From positions 1-41,700 of the forward strand of contig JAUQYZ020000001.1 in NCBI GenBank assembly GCA_030587475.2: a stretch of 41,700 nucleotides of DNA, given 5' to 3'. This document shows positions 541 through 31,013 of this stretch, one piece after another (within the stretch, counting starts at the first letter, position 1; every line of letters begins with the position of its first letter). The notes beneath the pieces are model-generated. The model made no database searches. It was not told the DNA's origin and saw only the letters and a list, made by a program, of their open reading frames with translations. Position numbers and translations under genes: made by a program. This DNA is from Candidatus Sigynarchaeum calidifontis (GTDB lineage: Archaea; Asgardarchaeota; Lokiarchaeia; Sigyniarchaeales; Sigyniarchaeaceae).

Positions 541-1659
541 TCACAAGTTCAAGTAGGTCTTCACTCCTTTTTCCACTTGCTTGGCGACCACGGAGATGAT
601 ACCTTGTTTTGAATTCGGGCCCGTGAGGATGATGAGGAAAATGTCTCCGAGCGTTGGCACGATGTGGATAATGCCATTCGTCCCGCCGAAGGTTATGTAC
701 TTCAACTCGCCGGACTCGGTGGCGAACATGATATCGCTGCCAACCGTGGTCACGGTCGTGGCGATGATGGCGACGAGCGAGTCGCTGAGGGCCGAGGAGA
801 TCGCTGATGCCAGGATCGTGCCGTCACGCTTGACGAGTGCTGAAGCCTTGATGACGGGGTCGATCTTGATGAGATCGCGCAGCACGTCCCCCAGGTTTTC
901 CGGCTCCTTGAACGGTAACTCGGACTTTGCCGCAGCGGGTTCTTCTTTCTTCGGGATCGTAGGGGTCTTCGGGAGCAATTCCATTTTTCCCTTGAAAGAT
1001 TCAAGCTCCCGCTTCATGGTCTTTTCGAGCGAGTCCTTGCCGCTCGGTGCAGTGGCCGGTTGGGGGGTAACGGGTGCCCGGCCACGGAGGTCGAGCGGGT
1101 TGCTCAATTTTCCAGAAGGGGGCCGCGAAGTCTCGACGGTAAGCACGGGGGCAGGCGATGCCGAGCGCGGCGGTTCGTCGTCGATGGCATCGGGGCTCGG
1201 GATGCTCACGGCGGGAGATGGGCGAACAGGTCTCGACGCCGGGGCGGGCGGTACATCGCTGCCCTTGGCGGCCAGCGCGCTGATCGATGATAGATTTTTC
1301 GGCCGGCTTTGGGCAAGGGATTGAGCGTCGACAGGTTTCGGTTGCGGCACTTGCGCGGGTGATTGCTGCACGAATGGCCTTGCTTGCTGCGGCCCGGCGG
1401 ATGCTGAGAAAGGAATGAACGTCGGCTTCTGGCTGGCTGGCATCTTGCTCTCTCGCGGAGCCGACGTGAACGGGCTGGGTTGGTCCGTGAACTCGCTCAG
1501 GCCCGCCGGCGTCATTGCCGAGGGTTTCTGTCTCGGCGTGGCAGGTTCAGACTTGAACGAAATGGCGGGAATGGGAAATCCACACTTCTGGCAAACGGTC
1601 TCCCGGTTCCCGCGGGCAACGAACTGGGCACCGCATGAAGGGCAGATGACTATAGAAAT
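541..1659 (-). CDS. Zn-ribbon + Pro/Ser-rich linker + C-terminal roadblock/LC7 (MglB-like) protein; start uncertain
   Basis: C-terminal LRDLIKIDPVIKASALVKRDGTILASA...GELKYITFGGTNGIIHI fits the roadblock pattern. The frame stays open upstream of the ATG at 1515 and encodes ICPSCGAQF..x..VCQKCGFP with no in-frame ATG/GTG/TTG; ATT at 1659 is used provisionally. Confidence 0.8.
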   Translation of the reverse strand: MSIVICPSCGAQFVARGNRETVCQKCGFPIPAISFKSEPATPRQKPSAMTPAGLSEFTDQPSPFTSAPRESKMPASQKPTFIPFSASAGPQQARPFVQQSPAQVPQPKPVDAQSLAQSRPKNLSSISALAAKGSDVPPAPASRPVRPSPAVSIPSPDAIDDEPPRSASPAPVLTVETSRPPSGKLSNPLDLRGRAPVTPQPATAPSGKDSLEKTMKRELESFKGKMELLPKTPTIPKKEEPAAAKSELPFKEPENLGDVLRDLIKIDPVIKASALVKRDGTILASAISSALSDSLVAIIATTVTTVGSDIMFATESGELKYITFGGTNGIIHIVPTLGDIFLIILTGPNSKQGIISVVAKQVEKGVKTYLNL

Positions 1660-20098: not shown

Positions 20099-20566
20099 CT
20101 ACTCGTCGCTTTCATTGGTAGCAGCAGTGATCTTGACCGAACCGCCGGCCGCGGAGATTTTTTCGATCGCCTTGGCACTGGCCATCTCCACGGTGATGTT
20201 ATACTTGCCGTTGACAGTCCCCGTGCTCAGCAGCTTGTTGTACCCGAGAGCCCCAAGGTCGATGTCGTACTGGCTGCCCTTCTTCGTGGCAGCGCCGGCC
20301 TTCTCGTACTCGGCCAGCCTCGTTTCGATGGTCTTGATGTCAATAGCGTTGACCTTCTTGACGACTTGCGCGGGGCGGTTGAAGCCGTGTTTGCCGAGCC
20401 AGTCCGGCTCGTACCTGATGACCCAGCTCCACATGTGCTTGCACGCGCCCGTCCAGCCGTGGCCGGCATTGCTACCGGAGCCCCGGTGCTGGGCCTGGCG
20501 GCCCCAGCCGTTCGTGCGGGAACCACGAAACTTGCTGCGGTTTTTTTTGTATTTGATCCCTGCCAT
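20099..20566 (-). CDS. rpl15: 50S ribosomal protein uL15
   Basis: RGSRTNGWG...HRGSG...GKHGF...KLLSTG; position in the spc cluster. Confidence 0.96.
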   Translation of the reverse strand: MAGIKYKKNRSKFRGSRTNGWGRQAQHRGSGSNAGHGWTGACKHMWSWVIRYEPDWLGKHGFNRPAQVVKKVNAIDIKTIETRLAEYEKAGAATKKGSQYDIDLGALGYNKLLSTGTVNGKYNITVEMASAKAIEKISAAGGSVKITAATNESDE

Positions 20567-21133
20567 TCAAATCATCCTCACGAGTAACTTGTTGATTTCG
20601 GTACCATGGTACCCCAGGACCCCGCCTTCTGCAAAGGCAATCTTTATCCCCTTGTTGAAGCCGCCGCGGGCAGGGTGAAGCCTGAAGATGGGTACGACTT
20701 GCTTGTCGAGCTCGTGGTATTTCACTTCGCCCTTCAAGAGTGCGTCAGCAAGTGCCTCGTATGACGGATACCCCGTCAGGTTTTTCACGCTCGTCTCGTC
20801 AAACGGACGATTTCCAGTGAGCCTTGCCTTTTTCTTGAGCAAGGTTATCAGCGTTTCCTTATCGATGATACCGTAGGCGATGTTATCCTTGCACTTGAAA
20901 AGTATTCCGTTCATCGCCGGTGATGCCCGCACGAGCGCGGCGTGATGCTTGTGGTGCAGTCGCATTAGTGCCATTGCCCTCTTGACATCGATATTCTTCT
21001 TGACATCGCCTCGTATGCGGATCGCCACGAGCAGCACGTCGTTCAGATCCTTCGCGTGAGTGGCATCCGCTGCTTTTACTGGTTCCGCTGGTTTCTGCCC
21101 TGCAACCACTGCTTGTTCCGATTTCTTGGCCAT
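20567..21133 (-). CDS. rpl30: 50S ribosomal protein uL30 (archaeal long form)
   Basis: AIRIRG...FRLHPARGGF...GYHGTEINKLLVRMI. Confidence 0.95.
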   Translation of the reverse strand: MAKKSEQAVVAGQKPAEPVKAADATHAKDLNDVLLVAIRIRGDVKKNIDVKRAMALMRLHHKHHAALVRASPAMNGILFKCKDNIAYGIIDKETLITLLKKKARLTGNRPFDETSVKNLTGYPSYEALADALLKGEVKYHELDKQVVPIFRLHPARGGFNKGIKIAFAEGGVLGYHGTEINKLLVRMI

Positions 21134-21153
21134 GTTAATTCCGCCTGATTAGG

Positions 21154-21873
21154 TTATTTCGGTATGTCGGGGGAAGAGACTTTCATCGTCTTCTTCAAGG
21201 CTTCAAAGGTGGCTTTAGTCATGTTCGAGGTCGACCGAGTCCTGCCCGATGTCCTAGACCATATGTCCTTGATCCCCGCGAGCTGCAGCACGACCTTCGC
21301 CGTGTCCCCGACCGCGAGCCCGATACCCTTTGGCGCGGGGATTAATTCGATCTCGACCGAGCCAGCCTTGCCGACCACGCGGAACGGGATCGTGTGGGGG
21401 TCGCCACAGCCGCATTCCCAACTGCCGCAACCCCGCTTCACGGGGATGAGGCCAAGCTTGGCCAGATTGATAGCCTTGTGGATCGCCGGGCCGATCTCCT
21501 TGGCCTTGGCCTCGCCGAGACCAATATAGCCATCGGCACCGACCACGACCGTGACCTTGAAGTTGCTGAGCTCGCCAGCGTCTGTCTGTTTCTGGACGAG
21601 CTTGACGTCGCAAACCTCTTCCTTGATACCAGGGACGAGTTTATCGACGATCTCGACCTCTTTAATGGGCATGATGTTCGTAAAGACCTCGTCAATGCTG
21701 GTGATCCTTCCCTCATTCACCATTTTTCCCAGTTTCGTTCTCGGTTCCCACTTGGGCACTTTCGCTTTTATCGTCTCGCGATCCCTGCCTTTGCGGCCTT
21801 TCCTGCCACCACCGCCGCGGCGCTCGCCCCGGCCACTACCGGAACGCTCGGGTCTCCTTGATTCTTCTGCCAT
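21154..21873 (-). CDS. rps5: 30S ribosomal protein uS5
   Basis: WEPRTKLGKMV, KQTDAGE, RGCGSWECGCG, PAPKGIGL. Confidence 0.97.
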   Translation of the reverse strand: MAEESRRPERSGSGRGERRGGGGRKGRKGRDRETIKAKVPKWEPRTKLGKMVNEGRITSIDEVFTNIMPIKEVEIVDKLVPGIKEEVCDVKLVQKQTDAGELSNFKVTVVVGADGYIGLGEAKAKEIGPAIHKAINLAKLGLIPVKRGCGSWECGCGDPHTIPFRVVGKAGSVEIELIPAPKGIGLAVGDTAKVVLQLAGIKDIWSRTSGRTRSTSNMTKATFEALKKTMKVSSPDIPK

Positions 21874-21895
21874 GTGATTATCATTCTCCAATCGT

Positions 21896-22498
21896 TCACG
21901 AGTACTTCTTGTCGATCTGTTTCTTGATATCGGCCACGGCGGCGGATATCTTGGATGAATCCTTGACCTTGCTGAATTGGAACTGCGATGCCGATTTTAT
22001 AACGCCGTCCTTGCCAGCCTCCTTGGCCGCATCTTTTATTTGCTTCGCGTAGGATTCGATATGTTTTCCGTTAAGGCGATCCTCGTCGGGGAAGATGTCC
22101 TCGTCTGCCGGAACCTCGATGCCCGCATCGATGACACCTTTCAACACGGCCCACGTCCGGTTGATATGGGTTCGTAGCCCGATGTCGGCAATGCCGTTCG
22201 TGATGCCGGCCTTGAGCGCCTTTTTACCAAGCAGGTAACCCGTGAGGTACGCACAAGGGAGATTGCCCGTGCCATACTCCCACTTGAATTCCTTCTGGAG
22301 CATCTTGGATGAGGCAGCGGCGCGGATCATGTCCCCTTTCAACTTCGCGTCGGTAACTTGGGCGATCACGTTCTTGCTAGAAGGCCGGATGACGATCCGG
22401 CTGCGACCCGAGGTGAGCAAGCTTTTGCGCGCGTAGTAATTGGTCCTGCCTTCACGCCGGCGACGGAAAGGTACTCGATAATTGGGTCCTTTTGCCAT
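21896..22498 (-). CDS. rpl18: 50S ribosomal protein uL18
   Basis: GPNYRVPFRRRREGRTNYYAR, NLPCAYLTGYL. Confidence 0.97.
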   Translation of the reverse strand: MAKGPNYRVPFRRRREGRTNYYARKSLLTSGRSRIVIRPSSKNVIAQVTDAKLKGDMIRAAASSKMLQKEFKWEYGTGNLPCAYLTGYLLGKKALKAGITNGIADIGLRTHINRTWAVLKGVIDAGIEVPADEDIFPDEDRLNGKHIESYAKQIKDAAKEAGKDGVIKSASQFQFSKVKDSSKISAAVADIKKQIDKKYS

Positions 22499-22520
22499 GT
22501 ACGTTCACTTCACTCCGTTT

Positions 22521-22994
22521 TTACTTCTTGGATTTGCGCGCCTTTTCTTTTTTAAGTACACCTTTATCCTGCATGTATCGCTTGAGCTGGGCTGTGTTCT
22601 TGAAGTTCCCGCCCTTCGCGAGTGCATAGTACTTCTGGTAGGTGACCGTGTCGATGATTTGCTTGTCCCGCAAGTTCTTGAGGAACGCGCGAATGCTGCG
22701 GATATGGGCAACCCAGGAAGATTTCGGGTCGTTGCGCGACGATGCGACGCCCTTGTGCGTGCCTGGGCCCGAACGGCGTCCCTTCTTTTTCTGCTCGTGG
22801 ATTGCCTTGGCACGGGCGCGGCTGACGCCCGTAGAATACCGTTTCTTTATGACGCCGCTGTTAATGAGCCCACGGATGTCACGCATCGTGATGGCTGTTG
22901 AAATATCGCTCGACATGAACGGATCCATGAACACGCGGTTCTCGCCGCATTTCAAGGCCTTTGCCGCGAGCCGGCGTTGTGCAGTGAGATTCAT
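22521..22994 (-). CDS. rpl19e: 50S ribosomal protein eL19
   Basis: QRRLAAKALKCGENRV, GRRSGPGTHKG, KGGNFKN. Confidence 0.97.
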   Translation of the reverse strand: MNLTAQRRLAAKALKCGENRVFMDPFMSSDISTAITMRDIRGLINSGVIKKRYSTGVSRARAKAIHEQKKKGRRSGPGTHKGVASSRNDPKSSWVAHIRSIRAFLKNLRDKQIIDTVTYQKYYALAKGGNFKNTAQLKRYMQDKGVLKKEKARKSKK

Positions 22995-23590
22995 TTCTTG
23001 TCACCAGTCTTCTTCTTTTCGTCGTTCTTGACGACATCCTTCTTGTTGTCGTCCGTCTTGACTTCATCCTTTTTGCTGTCAACATCCACGTCCTTGAGGT
23101 CATCAGCTGTGACTGATGGACCCTCGATCTTGCCAACCGTCGCGTCGACATCTTCGGGGGTAATGATCGCCGTCTCCTCGGCAGCGGTTGAAACTTTGAT
23201 GCCGGGATTGAGCAGTGTAAAACCGCGGGAAAGTATGGCTTCTTTGAGAGTAATGCGCTTGCGCCGGCCGACCGTGGAGCCGATCATGATAGCGTGGTTC
23301 TTAGGTTTCAAAGTCGCGAGTTCGCTTTCGTTGTGCACCACGACGCACTCGTAACCGCTCGGATGCAAGCCACGAACATCGCGAGGCGACCGGTAACCGA
23401 CCGCGGGCATGCGAGGAAGACCTGGCTTGGTACCACGGGCGAAAACCCAGCGCTGTTTGTTATCTTTGCCCATTGGCTTGCGCCAGGATGACCGGCTGAG
23501 GCGTGCATATCGCCAACTCTCGTTGCGAAGAAAACGCTTCTTGGAATGACCCTTGAGAATTTTTTCCTTGATTTTTTCACGCTTTACCAT
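22991..23590 (-). CDS. rpl32e: 50S ribosomal protein eL32 with ~65-aa C-terminal extension
   Basis: WRKPMGKDNKQR, VGYRSPRDVRGLHPSGY, LLNP followed by a D/K-rich tail. Confidence 0.95.
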   Translation of the reverse strand: MVKREKIKEKILKGHSKKRFLRNESWRYARLSRSSWRKPMGKDNKQRWVFARGTKPGLPRMPAVGYRSPRDVRGLHPSGYECVVVHNESELATLKPKNHAIMIGSTVGRRKRITLKEAILSRGFTLLNPGIKVSTAAEETAIITPEDVDATVGKIEGPSVTADDLKDVDVDSKKDEVKTDDNKKDVVKNDEKKKTGDKK

Positions 23591-23609
23591 AAAAAATCAT
23601 CTCGTTTCT

Positions 23610-24182
23610 TCAGGTTTTAACGTGCCAGAGCAGCGCATCACCGGCCCATTTTTCCATGATATAAATCCCGTCCTGGAAAATGCGGCGATCCTTGAACCGA
23701 ATTTTTGCAGCTTGCTGGAATCGGCCAGCATTCAAAGAAACTTCTTCCTTATCGATGCCTTCGATTATCACGTTTTCTTTCGTTGCCGTCACTTTCACGT
23801 TGCCCAGGATTGGCACGAGCCGCTTCCCGCGCTCGCCCGTGTAATTCGTGATCTCCAGGATGTCCTTGTCAACCTTGACAGTGAGGGGAAAATGGGAATA
23901 TGCGATGATCATCTTGTATTTAAATCCGACCGTCACGCCGAGTATCATGTTCTTGATGTGGCCCTCCAGCGTACCGAGCATGGCCAGGTCAGCCTTCCGG
24001 GGGAAACGGGACTCGATCAGGATCTTTCCCTTCGCTGGTGAGCTGAGCTCGACGTTCTTGGCGTGGCTGAAGTCTCGCTTAACAGTGCCTTTGGGGCCCT
24101 TGATCTCGATTTTTTTACCATCCAGCTTGAAGGAAACCGTATCCGGAACAGTAATTTCCCGTTGTGAATATGCATACTTCAT
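23610..24182 (-). CDS. rpl6: 50S ribosomal protein uL6
   Basis: KGPKG, YSHFP, NYTGE, KDRRIFQDGIYI. Confidence 0.97.
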   Translation of the reverse strand: MKYAYSQREITVPDTVSFKLDGKKIEIKGPKGTVKRDFSHAKNVELSSPAKGKILIESRFPRKADLAMLGTLEGHIKNMILGVTVGFKYKMIIAYSHFPLTVKVDKDILEITNYTGERGKRLVPILGNVKVTATKENVIIEGIDKEEVSLNAGRFQQAAKIRFKDRRIFQDGIYIMEKWAGDALLWHVKT

Positions 24183-24234
24183 ATTCTTTCACTCGGTTCT
24201 GTTAATCATTATGATGATTGCCATGTTTTGTGAA

Positions 24235-24627
24235 TCAATACACGTAGGCAAGTAGCCGGCCGCCGATGCCTTTTTGTTTTGCATCGTCATTGGTCATGAT
24301 CCCTTGATTCGTGCTCAAGATGAGAAATCCAAAACCCTTGCTAGGCAAGAATTTAGTCTCCCATTGCTCGATTTCGGTCTTGCGAACGGCATACCGGGGT
24401 TTGATGCTCTGCGCCTTGTTGATATGGCCTAAAAGCTCGACTTTAAATACACCCGCCTTTCCATCATCAATTAATTCAACGATGCCAATGTAACCACGCT
24501 GCATTAACACGTTGAGCACCTTTCCGACAAGTTTTGAAGCGGGATGTAAATATACATAATTTTTCGAACGTGCTTTTTCGGCATTATTGATAACCGCCAA
24601 GGCGTTGGATAATGGGTCTAGGAGCAT
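24235..24627 (-). CDS. rps8: 30S ribosomal protein uS8
   Basis: DPLSNAL, PASKL, IDDGKAG, LSTNQGIMT, GGRLLAYVY. Confidence 0.97.
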   Translation of the reverse strand: MLLDPLSNALAVINNAEKARSKNYVYLHPASKLVGKVLNVLMQRGYIGIVELIDDGKAGVFKVELLGHINKAQSIKPRYAVRKTEIEQWETKFLPSKGFGFLILSTNQGIMTNDDAKQKGIGGRLLAYVY

Positions 24628-24651
24628 TTCTGATTTTCACCTGTCATCGTT

Positions 24652-24798
24652 TTACGTATATTTCTTGAAATGAAGGTCGTTACCGACATCCCGGAAGCAT
24701 CGCCTGCAGATGTCAAGCCCGTAAGACCGGATCACGCCGCGATACGTGCCGCATCGCCTACATTTCACGCCGTTGAGTATGGATGTTTTCTTTACCAT
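24652..24798 (-). CDS. rps14: 30S ribosomal protein uS14 (Zn-binding type), 48 aa, not in ORF track
   Basis: Manual translation MVKKTSILNGVKCRRCGTYRGVIRSYGLDICRRCFRDVGNDLHFKKYT; lies between rpl5 and rps8. Confidence 0.95.
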   Translation of the reverse strand: MVKKTSILNGVKCRRCGTYRGVIRSYGLDICRRCFRDVGNDLHFKKYT

Positions 24799-24815
24799 TT
24801 TTTTGCTTCACCATG

Positions 24816-25400
24816 CTAATACATGCCAACCTCGATCACGTCAACCACTTCGGCATTGAAGTTCTCCTCCATGAAGAGAATGGCTTCTGACTTTGTTACA
24901 TATTGTTTCTTGGCCATGCGCGACGAGCGAACCTTCCGGACGCGAACGCGCTGGCCAGGTCTCACGATCTTGACAGTAATTTCAAAACCGAAAATCCCTA
25001 TATTAGGGTCGTATTTCATACCCGGCACGTTGATGTGTTCCTTCACGCCCCACGAAACGTTCCCCGCGTTGTCGAAAGAACGCCGCAAGATCTTGAAATC
25101 GTGCTCGACCATCGCGCGCTTGATGAACTCCACCGCTTTTTCGCCACGAAGGGTCACCACGGCAGCGATTTTTTCGCCCTTGCGGATGTTGAATTCTTTG
25201 ATCGATTTCTTGGCACCGACGAGGTTTGGTTTTTGCTTGCACATCTCCTCGAGAACCTGTGCTGCCTTCTGCAGCGTCTCGCCGGCTTGTCCAACGGCGA
25301 GGTTCACTACCACCTTCTCGAGCCGGGGCTTGAGGTTGGGATTTTTATCCCACAGAGCCCGGATCTCTTGTTTCTTGATCGCTGCGACTTGTTGTGACAT
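24816..25400 (-). CDS. rpl5: 50S ribosomal protein uL5
   Basis: KVVVNLAVG, VTLRG, SFDNAGNVSWGVKEHI, YDPNIGIFG. Confidence 0.97.
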   Translation of the reverse strand: MSQQVAAIKKQEIRALWDKNPNLKPRLEKVVVNLAVGQAGETLQKAAQVLEEMCKQKPNLVGAKKSIKEFNIRKGEKIAAVVTLRGEKAVEFIKRAMVEHDFKILRRSFDNAGNVSWGVKEHINVPGMKYDPNIGIFGFEITVKIVRPGQRVRVRKVRSSRMAKKQYVTKSEAILFMEENFNAEVVDVIEVGMY

Positions 25401-25422
25401 TATCAGTCATCCTCCGGCGTGA

Positions 25423-26160
25423 TCAACCCAAGGAAACGAGGGGCTTGCTATCACCGAGCACGAACAAGTACTTGAGCTTTGTTTCGAACGATTCACCCTT
25501 GTCCTCGAGCGTGGCCGTGTCGTTCTTCATTATCTTCGTTATCTTCGTGATTTTTCCCATGCGGCCGTCGTTGATGCCGTCCACGACGATCGCGAGCTTG
25601 CCCTCTTCAAGCTTCACGGAGTCGACAATTTCACCCGATCTCAAGTCGATCTTTACAGTGCTTCCAATAGTGTATTCTGCGGCTTCCTTCGGGTTCTTTG
25701 GGTCCTTGACTCTCACCAGGACGCTGCGGCCATCGTGTAGATTCAATTGCACGTTACCGCCTGGCTGCATCGTCTTGCCGATAATTTTACAAAGTTTAAA
25801 GTGCGCGTCCTTGTCGATCTCGACTAGCTTGTAGTAATACAACTTGTCGGTATTTACACGGAAGGTCTTTTTAAGTGCAGGGATCTCGATCACGTCCATC
25901 AAGCCGACGGGGAAGTGTATGTCCTTGCGTGGTTTGCCGTCGACGATCACGTGACCCGCAACAACCACTTTCTTTGCTTCCTTAGCGGTTGTGACGACCT
26001 TGAGCAAGTCCCGAAGCACATACAAGAGCGTGAAACTTTTACCAGCTTTGTGAGGACCCGGAATCGCCTTTGCGGTAAACGCGTATTCCTTCTTGTTGAT
26101 GCGCAAGTACGCCGGCGCAGCGAGACGCCGCACCACCAAGCTTCGTCCTTTTCTTGCCAT
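25423..26160 (-). CDS. rps4e: 30S ribosomal protein eS4
   Basis: RLAAP, PGPH, FPVGLMDVI, QLNLHDGR. Confidence 0.97.
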   Translation of the reverse strand: MARKGRSLVVRRLAAPAYLRINKKEYAFTAKAIPGPHKAGKSFTLLYVLRDLLKVVTTAKEAKKVVVAGHVIVDGKPRKDIHFPVGLMDVIEIPALKKTFRVNTDKLYYYKLVEIDKDAHFKLCKIIGKTMQPGGNVQLNLHDGRSVLVRVKDPKNPKEAAEYTIGSTVKIDLRSGEIVDSVKLEEGKLAIVVDGINDGRMGKITKITKIMKNDTATLEDKGESFETKLKYLFVLGDSKPLVSLG

Positions 26161-26167
26161 GCGTCGT

Positions 26168-26608
26168 TCACTTCCCCCTCTTCTTTCCAGATGCTATTTT
26201 TGGCTCCGCGGCCAGCCTTCTTTCCATCTCGGCCTCCCGAGCGGAAATTTTCCTGCGCTCGATGATTTGCTGGCGACGCTTGTCCAGATCGACCAATTTC
26301 GTGATGATTACCTTGGACGGGTGGATTGGATAGTAATGAAGGGAGCCATCTGATTTTTCCTTCGTGATTTCTTCGACCGTGATCTTGTATGCTTTTCTAT
26401 CGATACCGAGTACCTTCCCTTCGAGATCCTTGAACTGGCCCGCGGTAACGCGTACGTGATCGTTCACGCGAATTGGTAATCGTTTCACGTCATACTGCTT
26501 CGATAAAGCCTTTTCGAGCTTCGCGTTGAACTGGGATCCACGCCGGTTGAGCGGCATGTCCCTGAGCCAATTCCGCTGCTTCCTCGGTTTCTTTGAAGTC
26601 GTTGTCAT
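26168..26608 (-). CDS. rpl24: 50S ribosomal protein uL24
   Basis: SKKPRKQR, LPIRVNDHVRV, PIHPSKVIITKL; start at ATG 26608. Confidence 0.95.
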   Translation of the reverse strand: MTTTSKKPRKQRNWLRDMPLNRRGSQFNAKLEKALSKQYDVKRLPIRVNDHVRVTAGQFKDLEGKVLGIDRKAYKITVEEITKEKSDGSLHYYPIHPSKVIITKLVDLDKRRQQIIERRKISAREAEMERRLAAEPKIASGKKRGK

Positions 26609-26634
26609 TGTAATCGTGCCTTCTGGTGCTACTG

Positions 26635-27060
26635 CTAAACGATCAACGAGGCTATCGTCGCGACCCGCGGCCATAGCACCGCTGCTTCGCGTGCCACGGG
26701 CCCGGAAATCTCCGTTCCTTTCGTCTCGCCGGCCTCGTTCACGATGACCAACGCGTTGTCCTCGAACTCGATGTGCTGCCCGTTCGCCCGCCGGAAATGC
26801 TGGCGCTGCCGGACGATGACCGCGCGTAGGATCTTGCGCCGCGTGTCCGGCGTGCCTTTCTGGACCGCAACAACGACCATTGAACCGATGGTCGCGAGGG
26901 GTACCTGTTGGTAGTGTGCCTTGTACCGGGGAACGGCGATAATCCTAGCGGTCTTCGCGCCTGAATTATCGGCAACCTTCAGGATGGAACCGATCTCTAA
27001 GCCTCGGGTTATCTTCGGGAGAAAAATAATCCCTTTCTTGCCCATTTTACGCTTGCCCAT
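26635..27060 (-). CDS. rpl14: 50S ribosomal protein uL14
   Basis: VADNSGAK, AVIVRQR, FEDNA, GPVARE. Confidence 0.97.
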   Translation of the reverse strand: MGKRKMGKKGIIFLPKITRGLEIGSILKVADNSGAKTARIIAVPRYKAHYQQVPLATIGSMVVVAVQKGTPDTRRKILRAVIVRQRQHFRRANGQHIEFEDNALVIVNEAGETKGTEISGPVAREAAVLWPRVATIASLIV

Positions 27061-27066
27061 AAGTCA

Positions 27067-27447
27067 TCACGCTTGAGGTTCTTGGTCAACTTGGGTTTCC
27101 GTGGACGTTAATTTGACGGCTGACTTGTTTTCGATAATCACCGAAGCCACGGTCTTGGAGATCTTTCTTGTTTCCATAAAGACGACCGTATCGCCTACTG
27201 CCACGTCGATACAAGGGGGGCAATGGACGCTTTGTTTCGAATTCCTGCGTTCATACCGGTTGTATTTCTTTACTTTGAACAGAAAGTCGCGACGAATCGT
27301 GACCGTCCGCTGCATCTTCGTGCTCGTCACGACACCCTCGTAGATCCTGCCACGCAAACTGATCTGACCATGGTACGGGCAATGTTTGTCGTTGCAAGCC
27401 TTGGAGGGCGTGGTCGAGACCGCAACCCCGATGTTACGTGCTGCCAT
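27067..27447 (-). CDS. rps17: 30S ribosomal protein uS17
   Basis: CNDKHCPYHG, KYNRYERR, ETRKISKT. Confidence 0.97.
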   Translation of the reverse strand: MAARNIGVAVSTTPSKACNDKHCPYHGQISLRGRIYEGVVTSTKMQRTVTIRRDFLFKVKKYNRYERRNSKQSVHCPPCIDVAVGDTVVFMETRKISKTVASVIIENKSAVKLTSTETQVDQEPQA

Positions 27448-27453
27448 TATTGT

Positions 27454-27747
27454 TCACGATGAATAGTGTTTTTTTCCGATGTTTTTTATGCGATCCCACG
27501 GCCGGCCAATGATCAAGTCGCCGGGAACCAGCACATTCTTGCCCGAAGGCAACGTGATATTGAACATGTTATGTTTCTTGAGAACGCGCGCGATGCGGCC
27601 ATTTGGGCGCTGCACGAGTACCAAATTCGCAGTCTCGTCCACGATCGTACCTTGCAATCCGATTAGGGATCGGCAAGCTGGCTGGTGTATAGAAACGTGC
27701 AAGCCAATTAGTTCGTGGAACAAGATATTGTTGGGGGTGATGGGCAT
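27454..27747 (-). CDS. rnp1: RNase P protein component 1 (Rpp29/Pop4)
   Basis: HELIGL...GTIVDETAN...GRPWDRIK; conserved position before rps17. Confidence 0.93.
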   Translation of the reverse strand: MPITPNNILFHELIGLHVSIHQPACRSLIGLQGTIVDETANLVLVQRPNGRIARVLKKHNMFNITLPSGKNVLVPGDLIIGRPWDRIKNIGKKHYSS

Positions 27748-27787
27748 TTGCGCTCATCTTGCCGCGTCGTCGCGTCTTTTTTTGCAT

Positions 27788-27997
27788 TTATACTTGTTTT
27801 TTAGTATCGATGTTGATGAAAGTATTCAGCCGGGCGATTATTTTCTTGATGGAGCGGATCTTGCCGGGTGATTCGGACGTGTTTCCCGCGGCGAGCAAGC
27901 TACGTTGATACGCGAGCTCGGTCTTGTATTCAGCGAGCTTCTTCTGCTTTTCCTCGAGGCTCATTTCCTTGATGCGCTTCTTGTTCATCTTTACCAT
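27788..27997 (-). CDS. rpl29: 50S ribosomal protein uL29
   Basis: IKEMSLEE...PGKIRSIKKIIARLNT. Confidence 0.93.
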   Translation of the reverse strand: MVKMNKKRIKEMSLEEKQKKLAEYKTELAYQRSLLAAGNTSESPGKIRSIKKIIARLNTFINIDTKKQV

Positions 27998-28013: not shown

Positions 28014-28946
28014 TTACTTTTCATTCTCGGCCGGATCCTTGTCCTTATCGACATCTTCATTGCCGGCGGAAATGTCTTCCTTCTCATCCGTTTTCCCATC
28101 ATCTTCAGGAGCTTTATCTTCTTCGAGTTCCTCCTCGAGTTCCTCTTCGAGTGCCTCTGCATTCACGTCGTCTGTCTCAAGAAACTCGTCCGCGCCAGGC
28201 AACTTGCCCTTGATCTTACCGGGTACTATTTCCACGGGGGGTTCCTCGACCTCCTCCACGACCGGTGGCGCTGGACCCTTCGCGATGGGTATGGGCGTTT
28301 CGGGCCCTTCCTTTGGCGTGATGCGATCCTTGAACTCGGGACTTAGCTTGTCAACGCCGAGATACATGACCTCTTTCGGGTTGTCGTAGTTCTTCGGGAG
28401 GATGTTGATCCGGACTCCGAGAATGCCCGACTTGAGCTTCGCGTGCGCACAGCCGTGGCTCACGTGCTTGACGGGGTCCCCGCACCGCTTGATGTTTCCC
28501 TGGCGCATCTTCTGGTACCGGGCGCGCTGGGACGTGATCTTGCCCGTGATGATGATCTCAGCACCCTCGGCACCTGCTCTCATGATCCGGCGAAGCAGCC
28601 CGTATCCCGCCCGGCGGTAGTGTTGCCCCTTCTCCAATGCGCTGGCGAGGCGCTCGGCCATGATCTGGCCATTGAGCTCGGGGTTTCGGACCTCATCAAC
28701 GTCGATCTGCGGGTTCTCGATCTTGAAGTCGCGAGCAAGGACCTCCGTGAGGCCCTTCACGTTGGCACCTTTCTTGCCAATGACCAATCCAGGCCGCGCC
28801 GCCTTGATCGTCACGCGCGTGCCGAGTGGCGTCTTCTGGATATCAAGGCCAGCAAATCCGACGCCGTCGAGGTTCTTCCGAAAGTACTCGTGCAGTTCCA
28901 TCTGCTCCCTGGCTTTCACGGCGAAGAGGCGTTTGACGTTTACCAA
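28014..28946 (-). CDS. rps3: 30S ribosomal protein uS3 with long acidic C-terminal extension
   Basis: KTPLGTRVTI, RPGLVIGKKG, GAEIIITGK, GILGVRINI; TTG start. Confidence 0.97.
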   Translation of the reverse strand: MVNVKRLFAVKAREQMELHEYFRKNLDGVGFAGLDIQKTPLGTRVTIKAARPGLVIGKKGANVKGLTEVLARDFKIENPQIDVDEVRNPELNGQIMAERLASALEKGQHYRRAGYGLLRRIMRAGAEGAEIIITGKITSQRARYQKMRQGNIKRCGDPVKHVSHGCAHAKLKSGILGVRINILPKNYDNPKEVMYLGVDKLSPEFKDRITPKEGPETPIPIAKGPAPPVVEEVEEPPVEIVPGKIKGKLPGADEFLETDDVNAEALEEELEEELEEDKAPEDDGKTDEKEDISAGNEDVDKDKDPAENEK

Positions 28947-28992
28947 GCTGGTTTCATCTTCTTGATGGTGATCGTGAATGATTCCCGCATGT

Positions 28993-29185
28993 CAAGCGAT
29001 CCATGGGTTCTGTTGGCGGTAGCATTCCCGATCGCACCTCGGACTAGCAGCATTTAGCGAAACTCCTCGCTTTCCGATGCGCCAATCCAAAAGGATCGAG
29101 AAAAGCCACCCAGGACGCTCCAAATTACCAGCCGCCGCCACGGCGCCGGATCCGGAGCTTCTCCAAAACCGCGGAGATCGCCTTG
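28993..29185 (-). ncRNA. Candidate ~193 nt structured RNA (rps3 leader or stand-alone ncRNA)
   Basis: Nested helices read by eye on the minus strand: CAAG(G)CGAUC/GAUCGCUUG, GCUCC/GGAGC, GGUGGC/GCUACC, UUCUCGAUC/GAUCGGGAA, CGCA-UCGGA/UCCGA-GG-UGCG, AGCGA/UCGCU. Confidence 0.55.
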
Positions 29186-29211
29186 GGTTGTGTTATTGAA
29201 TCAGTTGCGGG

Positions 29212-29217
29212 TTTAAA
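29212..29217 (-). promoter_or_regulatory. Putative TATA box (TTTAAA) for the structured RNA/rps3 transcript
   Basis: Lies about 27 nt upstream of the 5' strand of the closing helix. Confidence 0.5.
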
Positions 29218-29572: not shown

Positions 29573-30028
29573 TCACTCTTCAACGATGGCGATCTCGATG
29601 TGCGTGTTCTTGCGGAAGTAGGGAGACGAGCGGCCGTGCGCGCGGGGGATAAATTTCTTGATGACGCGGCCCTGGTTAACCGCACAATGGATGATGCGGC
29701 ACTTGTCCACGTCGAGACCCTTGTATTCCGCGTTGGTCTCGACATCCTTGAGAAGCTCGAGTACCTTCTGCGCAGACTTGATTGGCCAGCGGCCGGGTCC
29801 CACATGCCCCTTGCGATGAGGTACCTTCTTGTTGTACCGCTTGAAGGGGACGGGTTCTGTGAAATTGATCACGCGCTCGCAAAAGTCCTTGGCCTTCTGT
29901 AAAGGCATGCCTTTTATGTGGTGGCATACCTCTCGCGTTTTTTTTAAACTAACGGGGGCATCCCGTTTGGCCGCGATCGCGCTCTTGTCCCGGTTCAACC
30001 CTGTAATTGAATACCCGAAGTTTGGCAT
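29573..30028 (-). CDS. rpl22: 50S ribosomal protein uL22
   Basis: VSLKKTREVC, VPFKRY, GRWPIK, PRAHGR, HIEI. Confidence 0.97.
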   Translation of the reverse strand: MPNFGYSITGLNRDKSAIAAKRDAPVSLKKTREVCHHIKGMPLQKAKDFCERVINFTEPVPFKRYNKKVPHRKGHVGPGRWPIKSAQKVLELLKDVETNAEYKGLDVDKCRIIHCAVNQGRVIKKFIPRAHGRSSPYFRKNTHIEIAIVEE

Positions 30029-30185
30029 GATCGAAATTCACTCGCCGTTTATGCAAAGTGATTAGAATGTGATGTTGAATGCCAAGATTGATTTAAAACT
30101 TGGTTTTACGAGCCGAGGTTGTTGCTAGCCGGGCCGAGATCCACGTTTAAGTGCCCGGCGGGGGATGCGTAGCAGTGACGAACCG

Positions 30186-31013
30186 ATGACGACAGTGGCG
30201 ATGCCCGACCCGGCGGCGCTCGACATCGAGATACACGACTTCCACCGGCACGTGGAGATCGCCGATGCCGGCGACATGAAGGTATACCACGTCACCAGTG
30301 CGTGTATCCTCCCGTCATGGCGCGAGTACAGGGCATCTGCTTTCGATGCCTACCCATCCAACGATTTCACGAATATTTTTTGGTACAAGGCCGATGTCAA
30401 GACGATCCGGCAGAAATTCGCTGGCTGGGCAGGCCAGCTCTTCACGTTCATCCCCGTCGATTTCCAGGGCGGCGTGGACAAGTTCAAGCGGGACCTCGAC
30501 GAGCTCGATCCCGCCGGCGTCAAGCTGCACCCGCTGCAATGCTTTCCCCTCGACAAGGGCTTCCTCGATCCCTTCTTTCGCATCATCCGGGACCGGGATC
30601 TCCTCGTCCACGTGCACACGGACTGGCCATCCAGAACCGAGTTCGGCAAGTTCAAGCCCGTTCTCGGGGCGACGTTCGGCAAGCTGGCACGGTGGTATAC
30701 CGACATCACGTTCATCATGGGCCATGCGGGCAACAACGATTCCTATCTCAACATCTGGAAAATCGTGAAACGGTGCCCTAATTGTATCGTGGAAACATCC
30801 ATGGCCCCGACCCCAGCGGAGCTCGACCGGGTCATCGCCCGGGTGGGTGCCGACCGCATCGTGTTCGGATCCAACTTTCCATACTGCAACACGGCGGTCG
30901 AGATAACGCGGGTTCTCGCGCTCCATCGCGCGTCGGCGGAGGACAAGCGGGGCATCCTTGGTGAAAACGCACGCACGATCTTGAAGGACAAGCCAAGGGT
31001 GGTGGTGCCGTGA
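30186..31013 (+). CDS. Amidohydrolase_2-family TIM-barrel metallohydrolase (copy 1)
   Basis: DFHRH, GVKLHP, VHVHT, MGHAG, FGSNFP (Asn in place of the usual Asp). Confidence 0.88.
   Translation: MTTVAMPDPAALDIEIHDFHRHVEIADAGDMKVYHVTSACILPSWREYRASAFDAYPSNDFTNIFWYKADVKTIRQKFAGWAGQLFTFIPVDFQGGVDKFKRDLDELDPAGVKLHPLQCFPLDKGFLDPFFRIIRDRDLLVHVHTDWPSRTEFGKFKPVLGATFGKLARWYTDITFIMGHAGNNDSYLNIWKIVKRCPNCIVETSMAPTPAELDRVIARVGADRIVFGSNFPYCNTAVEITRVLALHRASAEDKRGILGENARTILKDKPRVVVP

Follow-up and report, generated by a model that had tools for sequence, protein, structure and literature searches.

In Escherichia coli, the leader of the S10 operon is bound by L4 and the operator of the spc operon is bound by S8, and in both cases the effect spreads downstream by translational coupling; the S10 leader also acts through transcription attenuation with NusA. 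To our knowledge, very few cis-regulatory RNAs are known in archaea. Structured leaders are established for the control of ribosomal protein (r-protein) operons, and the archaeal candidates include S15-Halobacteria, S15-Methanomicrobia, eL15-Euryarchaeota and L4-Archaeoglobi, all of which are in Rfam (Eckert and Weinberg 2020, PMC7247131). The literature that we searched describes no cis-regulatory RNA from Asgard archaea. Here we analyse the interval between rpl22 and rps3 in an Asgard genome and describe a conserved, structured RNA element that lies there, at the head of the rps3–rpl15 run of genes.

The rps3 locus and the fold of its upstream gap

A sequence-only reading of the window (the whole 41,700-nucleotide stretch of DNA analysed here) had pointed to a gap of about 625 bp with no convincing ORF between rpl22 and rps3, two genes that it described as normally abutting. 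The gene coordinates confirm the gap, at 626 nt (Table 1). Of 19 order-level relatives from outside the family, 15 do carry rpl22 immediately before rps3; the remaining four have no rpl22 within the fetched flank of rps3. In all three other members of the family, rpl22 and rps3 are separated or unlinked. These are G001, a Promethearchaeota (Asgard) MAG of the same genus as the window genome (G000), together with G002 and G003. We rejected a protein-coding identity for the gap, as every frame is disrupted by indels (1, 2 and 3 nt) that distinguish G000 from G001, and the ORFs that overlie the region are not conserved. Two such ORFs overlie the leader region in relatives, a 159-aa gene call in GCA_040960625 (locus L118, 1028–1507, +) and a 117-aa ORF in G001 (locus L002, 1444–1797, −). 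Given the RNA conservation pattern, both are probably spurious.

The rpl22 gene of the window is an orphan, with no rps19 or rpl2 before it and a divergent Amidohydro_2 gene (30165–31013, +) upstream. The S10-like cluster is thus interrupted on both sides of rpl22 in the window genome; at two other loci, L119 and L122, rps19 and rpl22 are still adjacent. On the other side of the gap, rps3 opens an operon that continues in the order rpl29, RNase P p29, rps17, rpl14, rpl24, rps4e, rpl5, (rps14), rps8, rpl6, rpl32e, rpl19e, rpl18, rps5, (rpl30), rpl15. The sequence-only reading had counted 17 genes in this run. Pfam matches support 15 of them, and the two in brackets, rps14 and rpl30, are placed by position only, the ORF in the rpl30 slot having no Pfam match. 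The S3 protein of the window shares 97% identity with its counterpart in 'Candidatus Sigynarchaeum springense'. At its C terminus it has an acidic, low-complexity extension of about 100 residues (28014–28330, −) whose length varies; whole S3 proteins are 286–435 aa long among close relatives, and many other Asgard S3 proteins are 200–280 aa long.

Table 1. Coordinates of the rps3 upstream element and its neighbours in the window.
Feature	Position	Strand	Remark
rpl22	29573–30028	−	T-rich stretch CTCTTTCTTTCGT after its stop
TATA-like box TTTAAA	29212–29217	−	Conserved TTTTCGTCA precedes; putative leader promoter
Conserved ACCC	29185–29188	−	Predicted transcription start region, from box spacing
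Structured domain, ~190 nt	28994–29183	−	z −4.67; covariance-model matches in 7 lineages; covariation
P1 closing helix	AGGCGAUCU 29183–29175 / GGAUCGCUU 29002–28994	−	
Hairpin A	CUCC 29176–29173 / GGAG 29164–29161	−	
P2	GGUUUUG 29170–29164 (hairpin A loop) / CAGAACC 29012–29006	−	Possible pairing
P3a	29158–29154 / 29121–29117	−	
P3 asymmetric internal loop, 3′ strand UAAUUU	29122–29127	−	Opposite GGAU 29153–29150
P3b	29149–29141 / 29137–29128	−	
P4a	29110–29098 / 29029–29018	−	
P4b hairpin GAUCC/GGAUU	29097–29093 / 29088–29084	−	
P4c	29081–29076 / 29038–29033	−	
P4c apical region	29040–29075	−	GGMAAGCGAGGA..UUC, then CUAGUNCG; most conserved sequence
Unpaired motif CAUUCACGAUCACC	28967–28980	−	Between domain and start codon
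Five-codon uORF AUG AAA CCA GCU UGG UAA (MKPAW)	28940–28957	−	UGG-UAA overlaps rps3 UUG start
rps3 (uS3)	28014–28946	−	TTG start; first gene of rps3–rpl15 operon
Rest of operon	20099–27997	−	Pfam matches, except rps14 and rpl30 slots

The minus strand of the gap had been read as containing a multi-helix RNA, and a comparison with dinucleotide shuffles supports this. The minimum free energy of 28990–29190 (−) is −94.6 kcal/mol, against −73.6 ± 4.5 kcal/mol in 200 shuffles, none of which folds as well (z = −4.67). The opposite strand of the element has a z-score of −1.5. For the whole 626-nt gap the z-score is −0.45, and together with the value for the proximal part this indicates that only the rps3-proximal third of the gap is structured. 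The domain is therefore both structured and strand-specific. Nor was it recognised as a tRNA, SRP RNA or known riboswitch, as the sequence-only reading had already remarked: a search of the window with the covariance models of Rfam 15 returned no family at gathering thresholds, and at E ≤ 10 the sole match, a spurious one to an lncRNA model, scored 15.8 bits where the threshold is 45. The window genome, a 5-Mb assembly, has a single copy of the element, and on this ground we rejected a repeat or mobile element.

Homologues, architecture and covariation

A BLAST search against 40 relatives returned one match, in G001, with 75% identity over query positions 389–613 of 626. This match covers exactly the structured part, just upstream of rps3, and the rest of the gap is not conserved; the G000 and G001 elements fold alike. 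Further loci were collected from metagenomes and assemblies by way of S3 homologues, and two covariance models used in succession (R1, then R2) identified seven distinct full-length members: the window, L002 (the rps3 locus of G001), L118, L116 (identical to L117 and counted once), L119, L120 and L121. Their R2 scores are 131–220 bits. An eighth copy, at L074, is truncated at its 5′ end. At all eight loci rps3 follows directly 3′ of the element, in the same orientation. What lies upstream varies, being rpl22 in G000 and L119 and unrelated or divergent genes in G001, L116, L118, L120 and L121. Sense-strand z-scores range from −2.5 to −4.4 across all seven members, and the antisense fold is weaker than the sense fold in six of the seven. 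The S3 proteins of the member lineages are 84–95% identical over residues 1–200, and the flanking spacer is not alignable.

Searches of wider scope found no additional lineage. In 151 genomes of the order, R1 detected only G000 and G001, and in about 150 class-level genomes R2 detected these two plus a marginal match (E 0.065) that we read as noise. Order-level relatives in which rpl22 and rps3 abut lack the element, and a 20-mer pattern scan of GTDB species genomes gave only G001 and random bacterial matches. The element had been put forward as an undescribed Asgard RNA; it matches no Rfam family, but it is not Asgard-wide and is confined to one Sigynarchaeota sub-clade.

The rps3 leaders of G002, G003, L122 and L123 are not detected by R1 or R2. 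These four share the 5′ module only, consisting of ACCC, a short P1 and hairpin A (YUCUC...GAGAA), and after it they carry a small three-way junction in place of P3 and P4. Because these model-undetected relatives share the 5′ module, a promoter and structured leader before rps3 would seem to be a trait of the whole family, which one sub-clade has apparently elaborated into the large domain. The small leader of the sister genera, about 75–90 nt long and made up of P1, hairpin A (YUCUC/GAGAA) and a hairpin B, lies at about 2180–2263 (−) in L041 (the G002 locus), about 1250–1335 (+) in L040 (the G003 locus) and about 1205–1300 (+) in L122. It is followed by CGGAGAC, which could pair with UCUCC instead, a switch-like alternative. 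The z-score of its fold is −3.9 in G002 and −2.5 in G003.

The large domain is closed by helix P1 (Table 1). The sequence-only reading had placed this closing helix at 29185–29176/29001–28993, ending 46 nt before the TTG codon. The helix itself stands, with both strands slightly repositioned and its end now 47 nt from the TTG. As nested helices, hairpin A and P2 exclude each other; P2 may replace hairpin A or form a pseudoknot with it. Alternative pairings thus exist between UCUCC/GGAGA and the pairing of the hairpin A loop to the 3′ tail, and GGAUU can likewise pair with either AAUCC or UAGUYC. In the L119 group, the closing helix has two alternative pairings. P3 is built from a lower stem, an invariant asymmetric internal loop and an upper stem that covaries freely. 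The internal loop is conserved, with GAU facing UAAUU and with GGUAA invariant in all seven members, and inspection of the loop by eye found no tandem sheared G–A signature of a K-turn. Comparison of the members suggests that the long distal hairpin is a three-way junction of P4a, P4b and P4c, not one unbroken stem as in the MFE fold of G000, and the apical region of P4c is a candidate recognition site. The 5′ strand of P4a (29098–29105, −) is a conserved U run that begins about 10 nt after P3, with U4 in G000 and U5–U6 in G001, L116 and L119. Oligo-U tracts are termination signals in archaea, and premature termination inside the leader at this run is conceivable.

We examined covariation in the rps3 upstream regions of the relatives, as the sequence-only reading had proposed. 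In a MAFFT alignment made independently of the structure, 73.9% of cells are paired under the G000-derived structure, compared with 34–50% in slid controls in which the 3′ partners were shifted by 1–3 columns, and 11 of the 52 pairs are altered on both sides. With seven sequences from about three sub-clades the power to detect covariation is limited, and kinship inflates such tests; within these limits, the covariation score of the MAFFT alignment was matched by 2 of 500 shuffles, and the number of pairs changed on both sides by 50 of 500 (43 of 500 on the model-realigned alignment A6). Realignment to the model gave the same outcome, and paired cells make up 74–75% over both alignments. Compensatory changes are found in P1, P2, P3, P4a and P4c. 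When the helices were registered by hand, in a curated table that can flatter the model, 318 of 336 cells were canonical, and P1, P2, P3a, P3b, P4a, P4b and P4c each had at least one position altered on both sides. P2 shifts register between members, from GGUUUUG/CAGAACC in G000 to GUUCCA/UGGAAC in G001, and is represented by shorter complementary pairs in the others. Together, these data show, at the modest power that seven sequences allow, a structure conserved with compensatory changes.

Several known identities were considered and rejected. A 5S rRNA was considered because RF00001 finds no 5S in G000, G001 or G003. The element is 190 nt long, compared with about 120 nt for 5S rRNA, and has no 5S signatures and no RF00001 match; moreover, G002 has a separate weak 5S-like locus on another contig yet also a leader before rps3. 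A minimal RNase P RNA, including type T, was considered since the operon holds the p29 gene and RF00373 has no match in any of the four family genomes. No Rfam RNase P model matched, and the CR-V-like ACAGAAC of G000 is not conserved, reading AUGGAAC in G001 and ACGGAAA in the L119 group. At the sequence level we also rejected rRNA mimicry, as Smith–Waterman comparisons of three leaders with family 16S and order-level 23S gave scores within the shuffle range. A 12-mer common to L118 and 23S position ~380 falls in a variable segment whose sequence is not shared by two genera, the 8-mer CUAGUCCG at 23S position ~913 is no more than expected by chance, and no block of the element matches the 3′ (H95–H97) part of related 23S at the sequence level. 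A regulon signal was rejected as well: the pattern ACCC..TCTCC..GGAGAA occurs at two other sites in the genome, both inside coding genes.

These searches also gave a side observation on the stable RNAs of the family. Searched with Rfam models, G000, G001 and the single-contig G003 yield neither rRNA (5S, 16S or 23S) nor RNase P RNA. In G002 a 16S is present, together with only a weak (28.6-bit) but plausible 5S at C2:11659–11779, and family f4 of the same order has sub-threshold 5S matches only. Either the missing RNAs were not assembled, or they diverge from the Rfam models.

Promoter-like boxes and the approach to the rps3 start

The TTTAAA box that the sequence-only reading had placed ahead of the domain is at the position claimed, and it is conserved at promoter spacing. 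An A/T box starts 28–31 nt before ACC(C/G) in 10 of 11 Sigynarchaeota-like rps3 upstream regions, namely those of the seven members and of G002, G003, L122 and L123. In the eleventh and most divergent of them, L123, the box is about 33–35 nt before ACC(C/G). A distance of 28–31 nt is the expected spacing between an archaeal TATA box and the start site. From this arrangement, we infer that the box is the leader promoter and that transcription starts near 29188. The implied leaders are 173–297 nt long across the 11 regions. The stretch from the domain to rps3 contains no run of four or more U in any member, which argues against termination and for co-transcription of the element with rps3.

A second TATA-like box lies just 3′ of P1 in G001 (CUUAAAAUGCGG, at about 1520–1535 (−) of L002), in L118 (CUUAUUAAACGG, about 1405–1420 (+)) and in the L119 group (AUUUAAAUCGG, about 1385–1400 (+) of L119), and UUUAUAUC is found at −99 to −128 in G002, G003, L122 and L123. 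This second box is absent from two members, being degenerate in G000 (CUUGACAUGCGG) and deleted in L116. As G000 and L116 have no downstream box, rps3 needs the upstream promoter there. The presence of the second box in several relatives could mean that they use dual promoters.

The stretch of about 47 nt that separates the domain from the rps3 TTG is unpaired and CA/AU-rich. A motif of the CAUUCACGAUCACC type is present in six of the seven members, five times as CAUUCACGAUYACC and in L120 with ACU; L116 has no CAUUCAC motif. CACGAU-type motifs occur in G002 and G003 too. The TTG codon, which had been described as a weak start for rps3, aligns with the ATG-GTA-AAC start of G001, and no Shine–Dalgarno-like sequence precedes rps3 in any member. 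In the window a five-codon uORF overlaps this start (Table 1), and homologous MK.I.. uORFs overlap the rps3 start in G001, L118, L119, L120 and L121. The uORF of L074 ends earlier, and L116 is without one. The uORFs of G001 and L118 differ by four substitutions, three of which are non-synonymous, and the encoded peptide is therefore probably of no importance in itself. The overlap between uORF and rps3 may serve termination–reinitiation coupling. Both the uORF and the CAUUCAC motif are absent from L116, and the proposed coupling is thus not universal.

Possible roles and comparison with known leaders

An autoregulatory leader, a riboswitch and a stand-alone ncRNA had all been offered as identities for the element. 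That a structured RNA heads the rps3–rpl15 run is borne out, and of the identities proposed we rank the leader first. With moderate confidence, we read the element as a clade-restricted structured 5′ leader of the rps3–rpl15 mRNA, probably bound by a protein that the operon encodes. By analogy with known r-protein leaders, feedback by such a protein would be its most likely role. In the mechanism that we propose, the ancestral rpl22–rps3 junction would have opened in Sigynarchaeota, and rps3 would have gained its own promoter. The first ~195 nt of the transcript would fold into the closing stem P1/P2, hairpin P3 and the three-way junction P4, creating a site to which a protein encoded in the operon could bind. 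Once in excess of free rRNA, this protein would bind the leader and reduce translation of rps3 and of the translationally linked genes downstream. In the window genome, binding could limit the access of ribosomes to the uORF, after which they would otherwise re-initiate at the UUG. A more specific version, in which the element senses an r-protein for which no mRNA operator is known from any organism (for example uS3, uS17 or uL24) and gates the 17-gene operon through uORF termination–reinitiation, a mechanism unusual for archaea, is a speculation that we consider rather unlikely.

The element might instead be a gene for a stand-alone ncRNA of about 200 nt, transcribed from the box at 29217–29212 and yielding a trans-acting or stable processed product, with rps3 served now or ancestrally by a second, proximal promoter. 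We regard such a gene as unlikely, though it is the main rival to the leader. It would explain why the element has a conserved promoter-like box of its own and why a helix joins the 5′ and 3′ ends of the domain, as in many stable RNAs. The box 3′ of the domain in G001, L118 and the L119 group could then be the true rps3 promoter, and the conserved CAUUCACGAU sits about where this proximal promoter would start transcription. However, no member has an oligo-U terminator after the domain, and G000 and L116, which belong to different sub-clades, keep the distal box without the proximal one. The element occurs in one copy per genome and never away from rps3, despite its changing upstream neighbour. 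A leader that acts without feedback is a less probable alternative. It would have no specific r-protein ligand, and its stable 5′ structure would protect the very long polycistronic mRNA from 5′-end-dependent decay, guide its processing or, as a structural enhancer, raise translation of the first gene, which has a UUG start and lacks a Shine–Dalgarno sequence. Its position and predicted co-transcription would be the same as in our preferred reading, and it is consistent with our failure to find rRNA mimicry, with the lack of a Shine–Dalgarno-like sequence before rps3 in every member and with the UUG start in the window. What speaks against it is that a protective stem needs no ~190 nt with invariant GGUAA, GGCAAGCGAGGAAAUUC and CUAGU amid diverged helices, and that the sister genera manage with a much smaller element.

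It is very improbable that the element is a non-functional remnant, for example an insertion in decay or a lineage-specific spacer with a chance fold, conserved only through the closeness of the genomes. A remnant would fit the narrow distribution, the unconserved remainder of the gap and the small number of sequences. Yet the element is conserved where S3 is only 84–95% identical and the flanking spacer cannot be aligned; its helices show compensatory changes, and pairing drops to 34–50% in the slid controls. It is also single-copy, with no repeats and no link to a transposase. Slightly more improbable still is control of the r-protein operon by a riboswitch or some other RNA that senses a small molecule or ion. 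The multi-helix junction has invariant unpaired nucleotides and alternative pairings exist, as might be expected of a sensor, but no Rfam riboswitch matches even at E ≤ 10, the phyletic range is very narrow, and all occurrences of the element precede rps3, none a gene for metabolism or transport. We also know of no reported riboswitch that controls an archaeal r-protein operon, which we count against this reading.

Large and clearly bounded, the element is linked to the main r-protein operon. If it is a feedback operator, Asgard lineages would have evolved their own way of balancing r-protein and rRNA synthesis after the ancestral cluster broke up, and the operator and its ligand would be a new RNA–protein recognition pair. 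Should the version gated by the uORF hold, it would make translational feedback accessible to experiment in the archaea most closely related to eukaryotes. The covariance model of the family can also be used to annotate a region that gene callers now fill with spurious ORFs.

Compared with the known r-leaders, the rps3 element differs in matching no Rfam family in sequence or structure. With about 190 nt and more than seven helices, it is much larger than most of them. It also shows no detected rRNA mimicry, a trait that is frequent among r-leaders without being obligatory, and an archaeal leader at rps3 is unreported in the literature that we searched. The differences from E. coli are of another kind. 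The Sigynarchaeum unit starts at rps3, whereas the E. coli units start at rpsJ or rplN. The E. coli S10 leader is bound by L4, whereas rpl4 is not in the Sigynarchaeum operon. We recognised no motif like the S8 site of the spc operator in the rps3 element, and no equivalent of the S10 attenuation with NusA is evident, though the U4–U6 run is the 5′ strand of P4a. What the element shares with the S10 and spc operators is the same conserved gene block (rpsC...rplO) and a structured mRNA region close to where the transcription unit begins. Like the archaeal r-leaders, it is a conserved, lineage-restricted structured RNA located 5′ of an r-protein operon and recognised by covariation and genomic position: its structure is supported by covariation, and at eight loci it lies directly upstream of the operon on the same strand. 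The rps3 element is thus a new RNA family of a known, r-leader-like kind.
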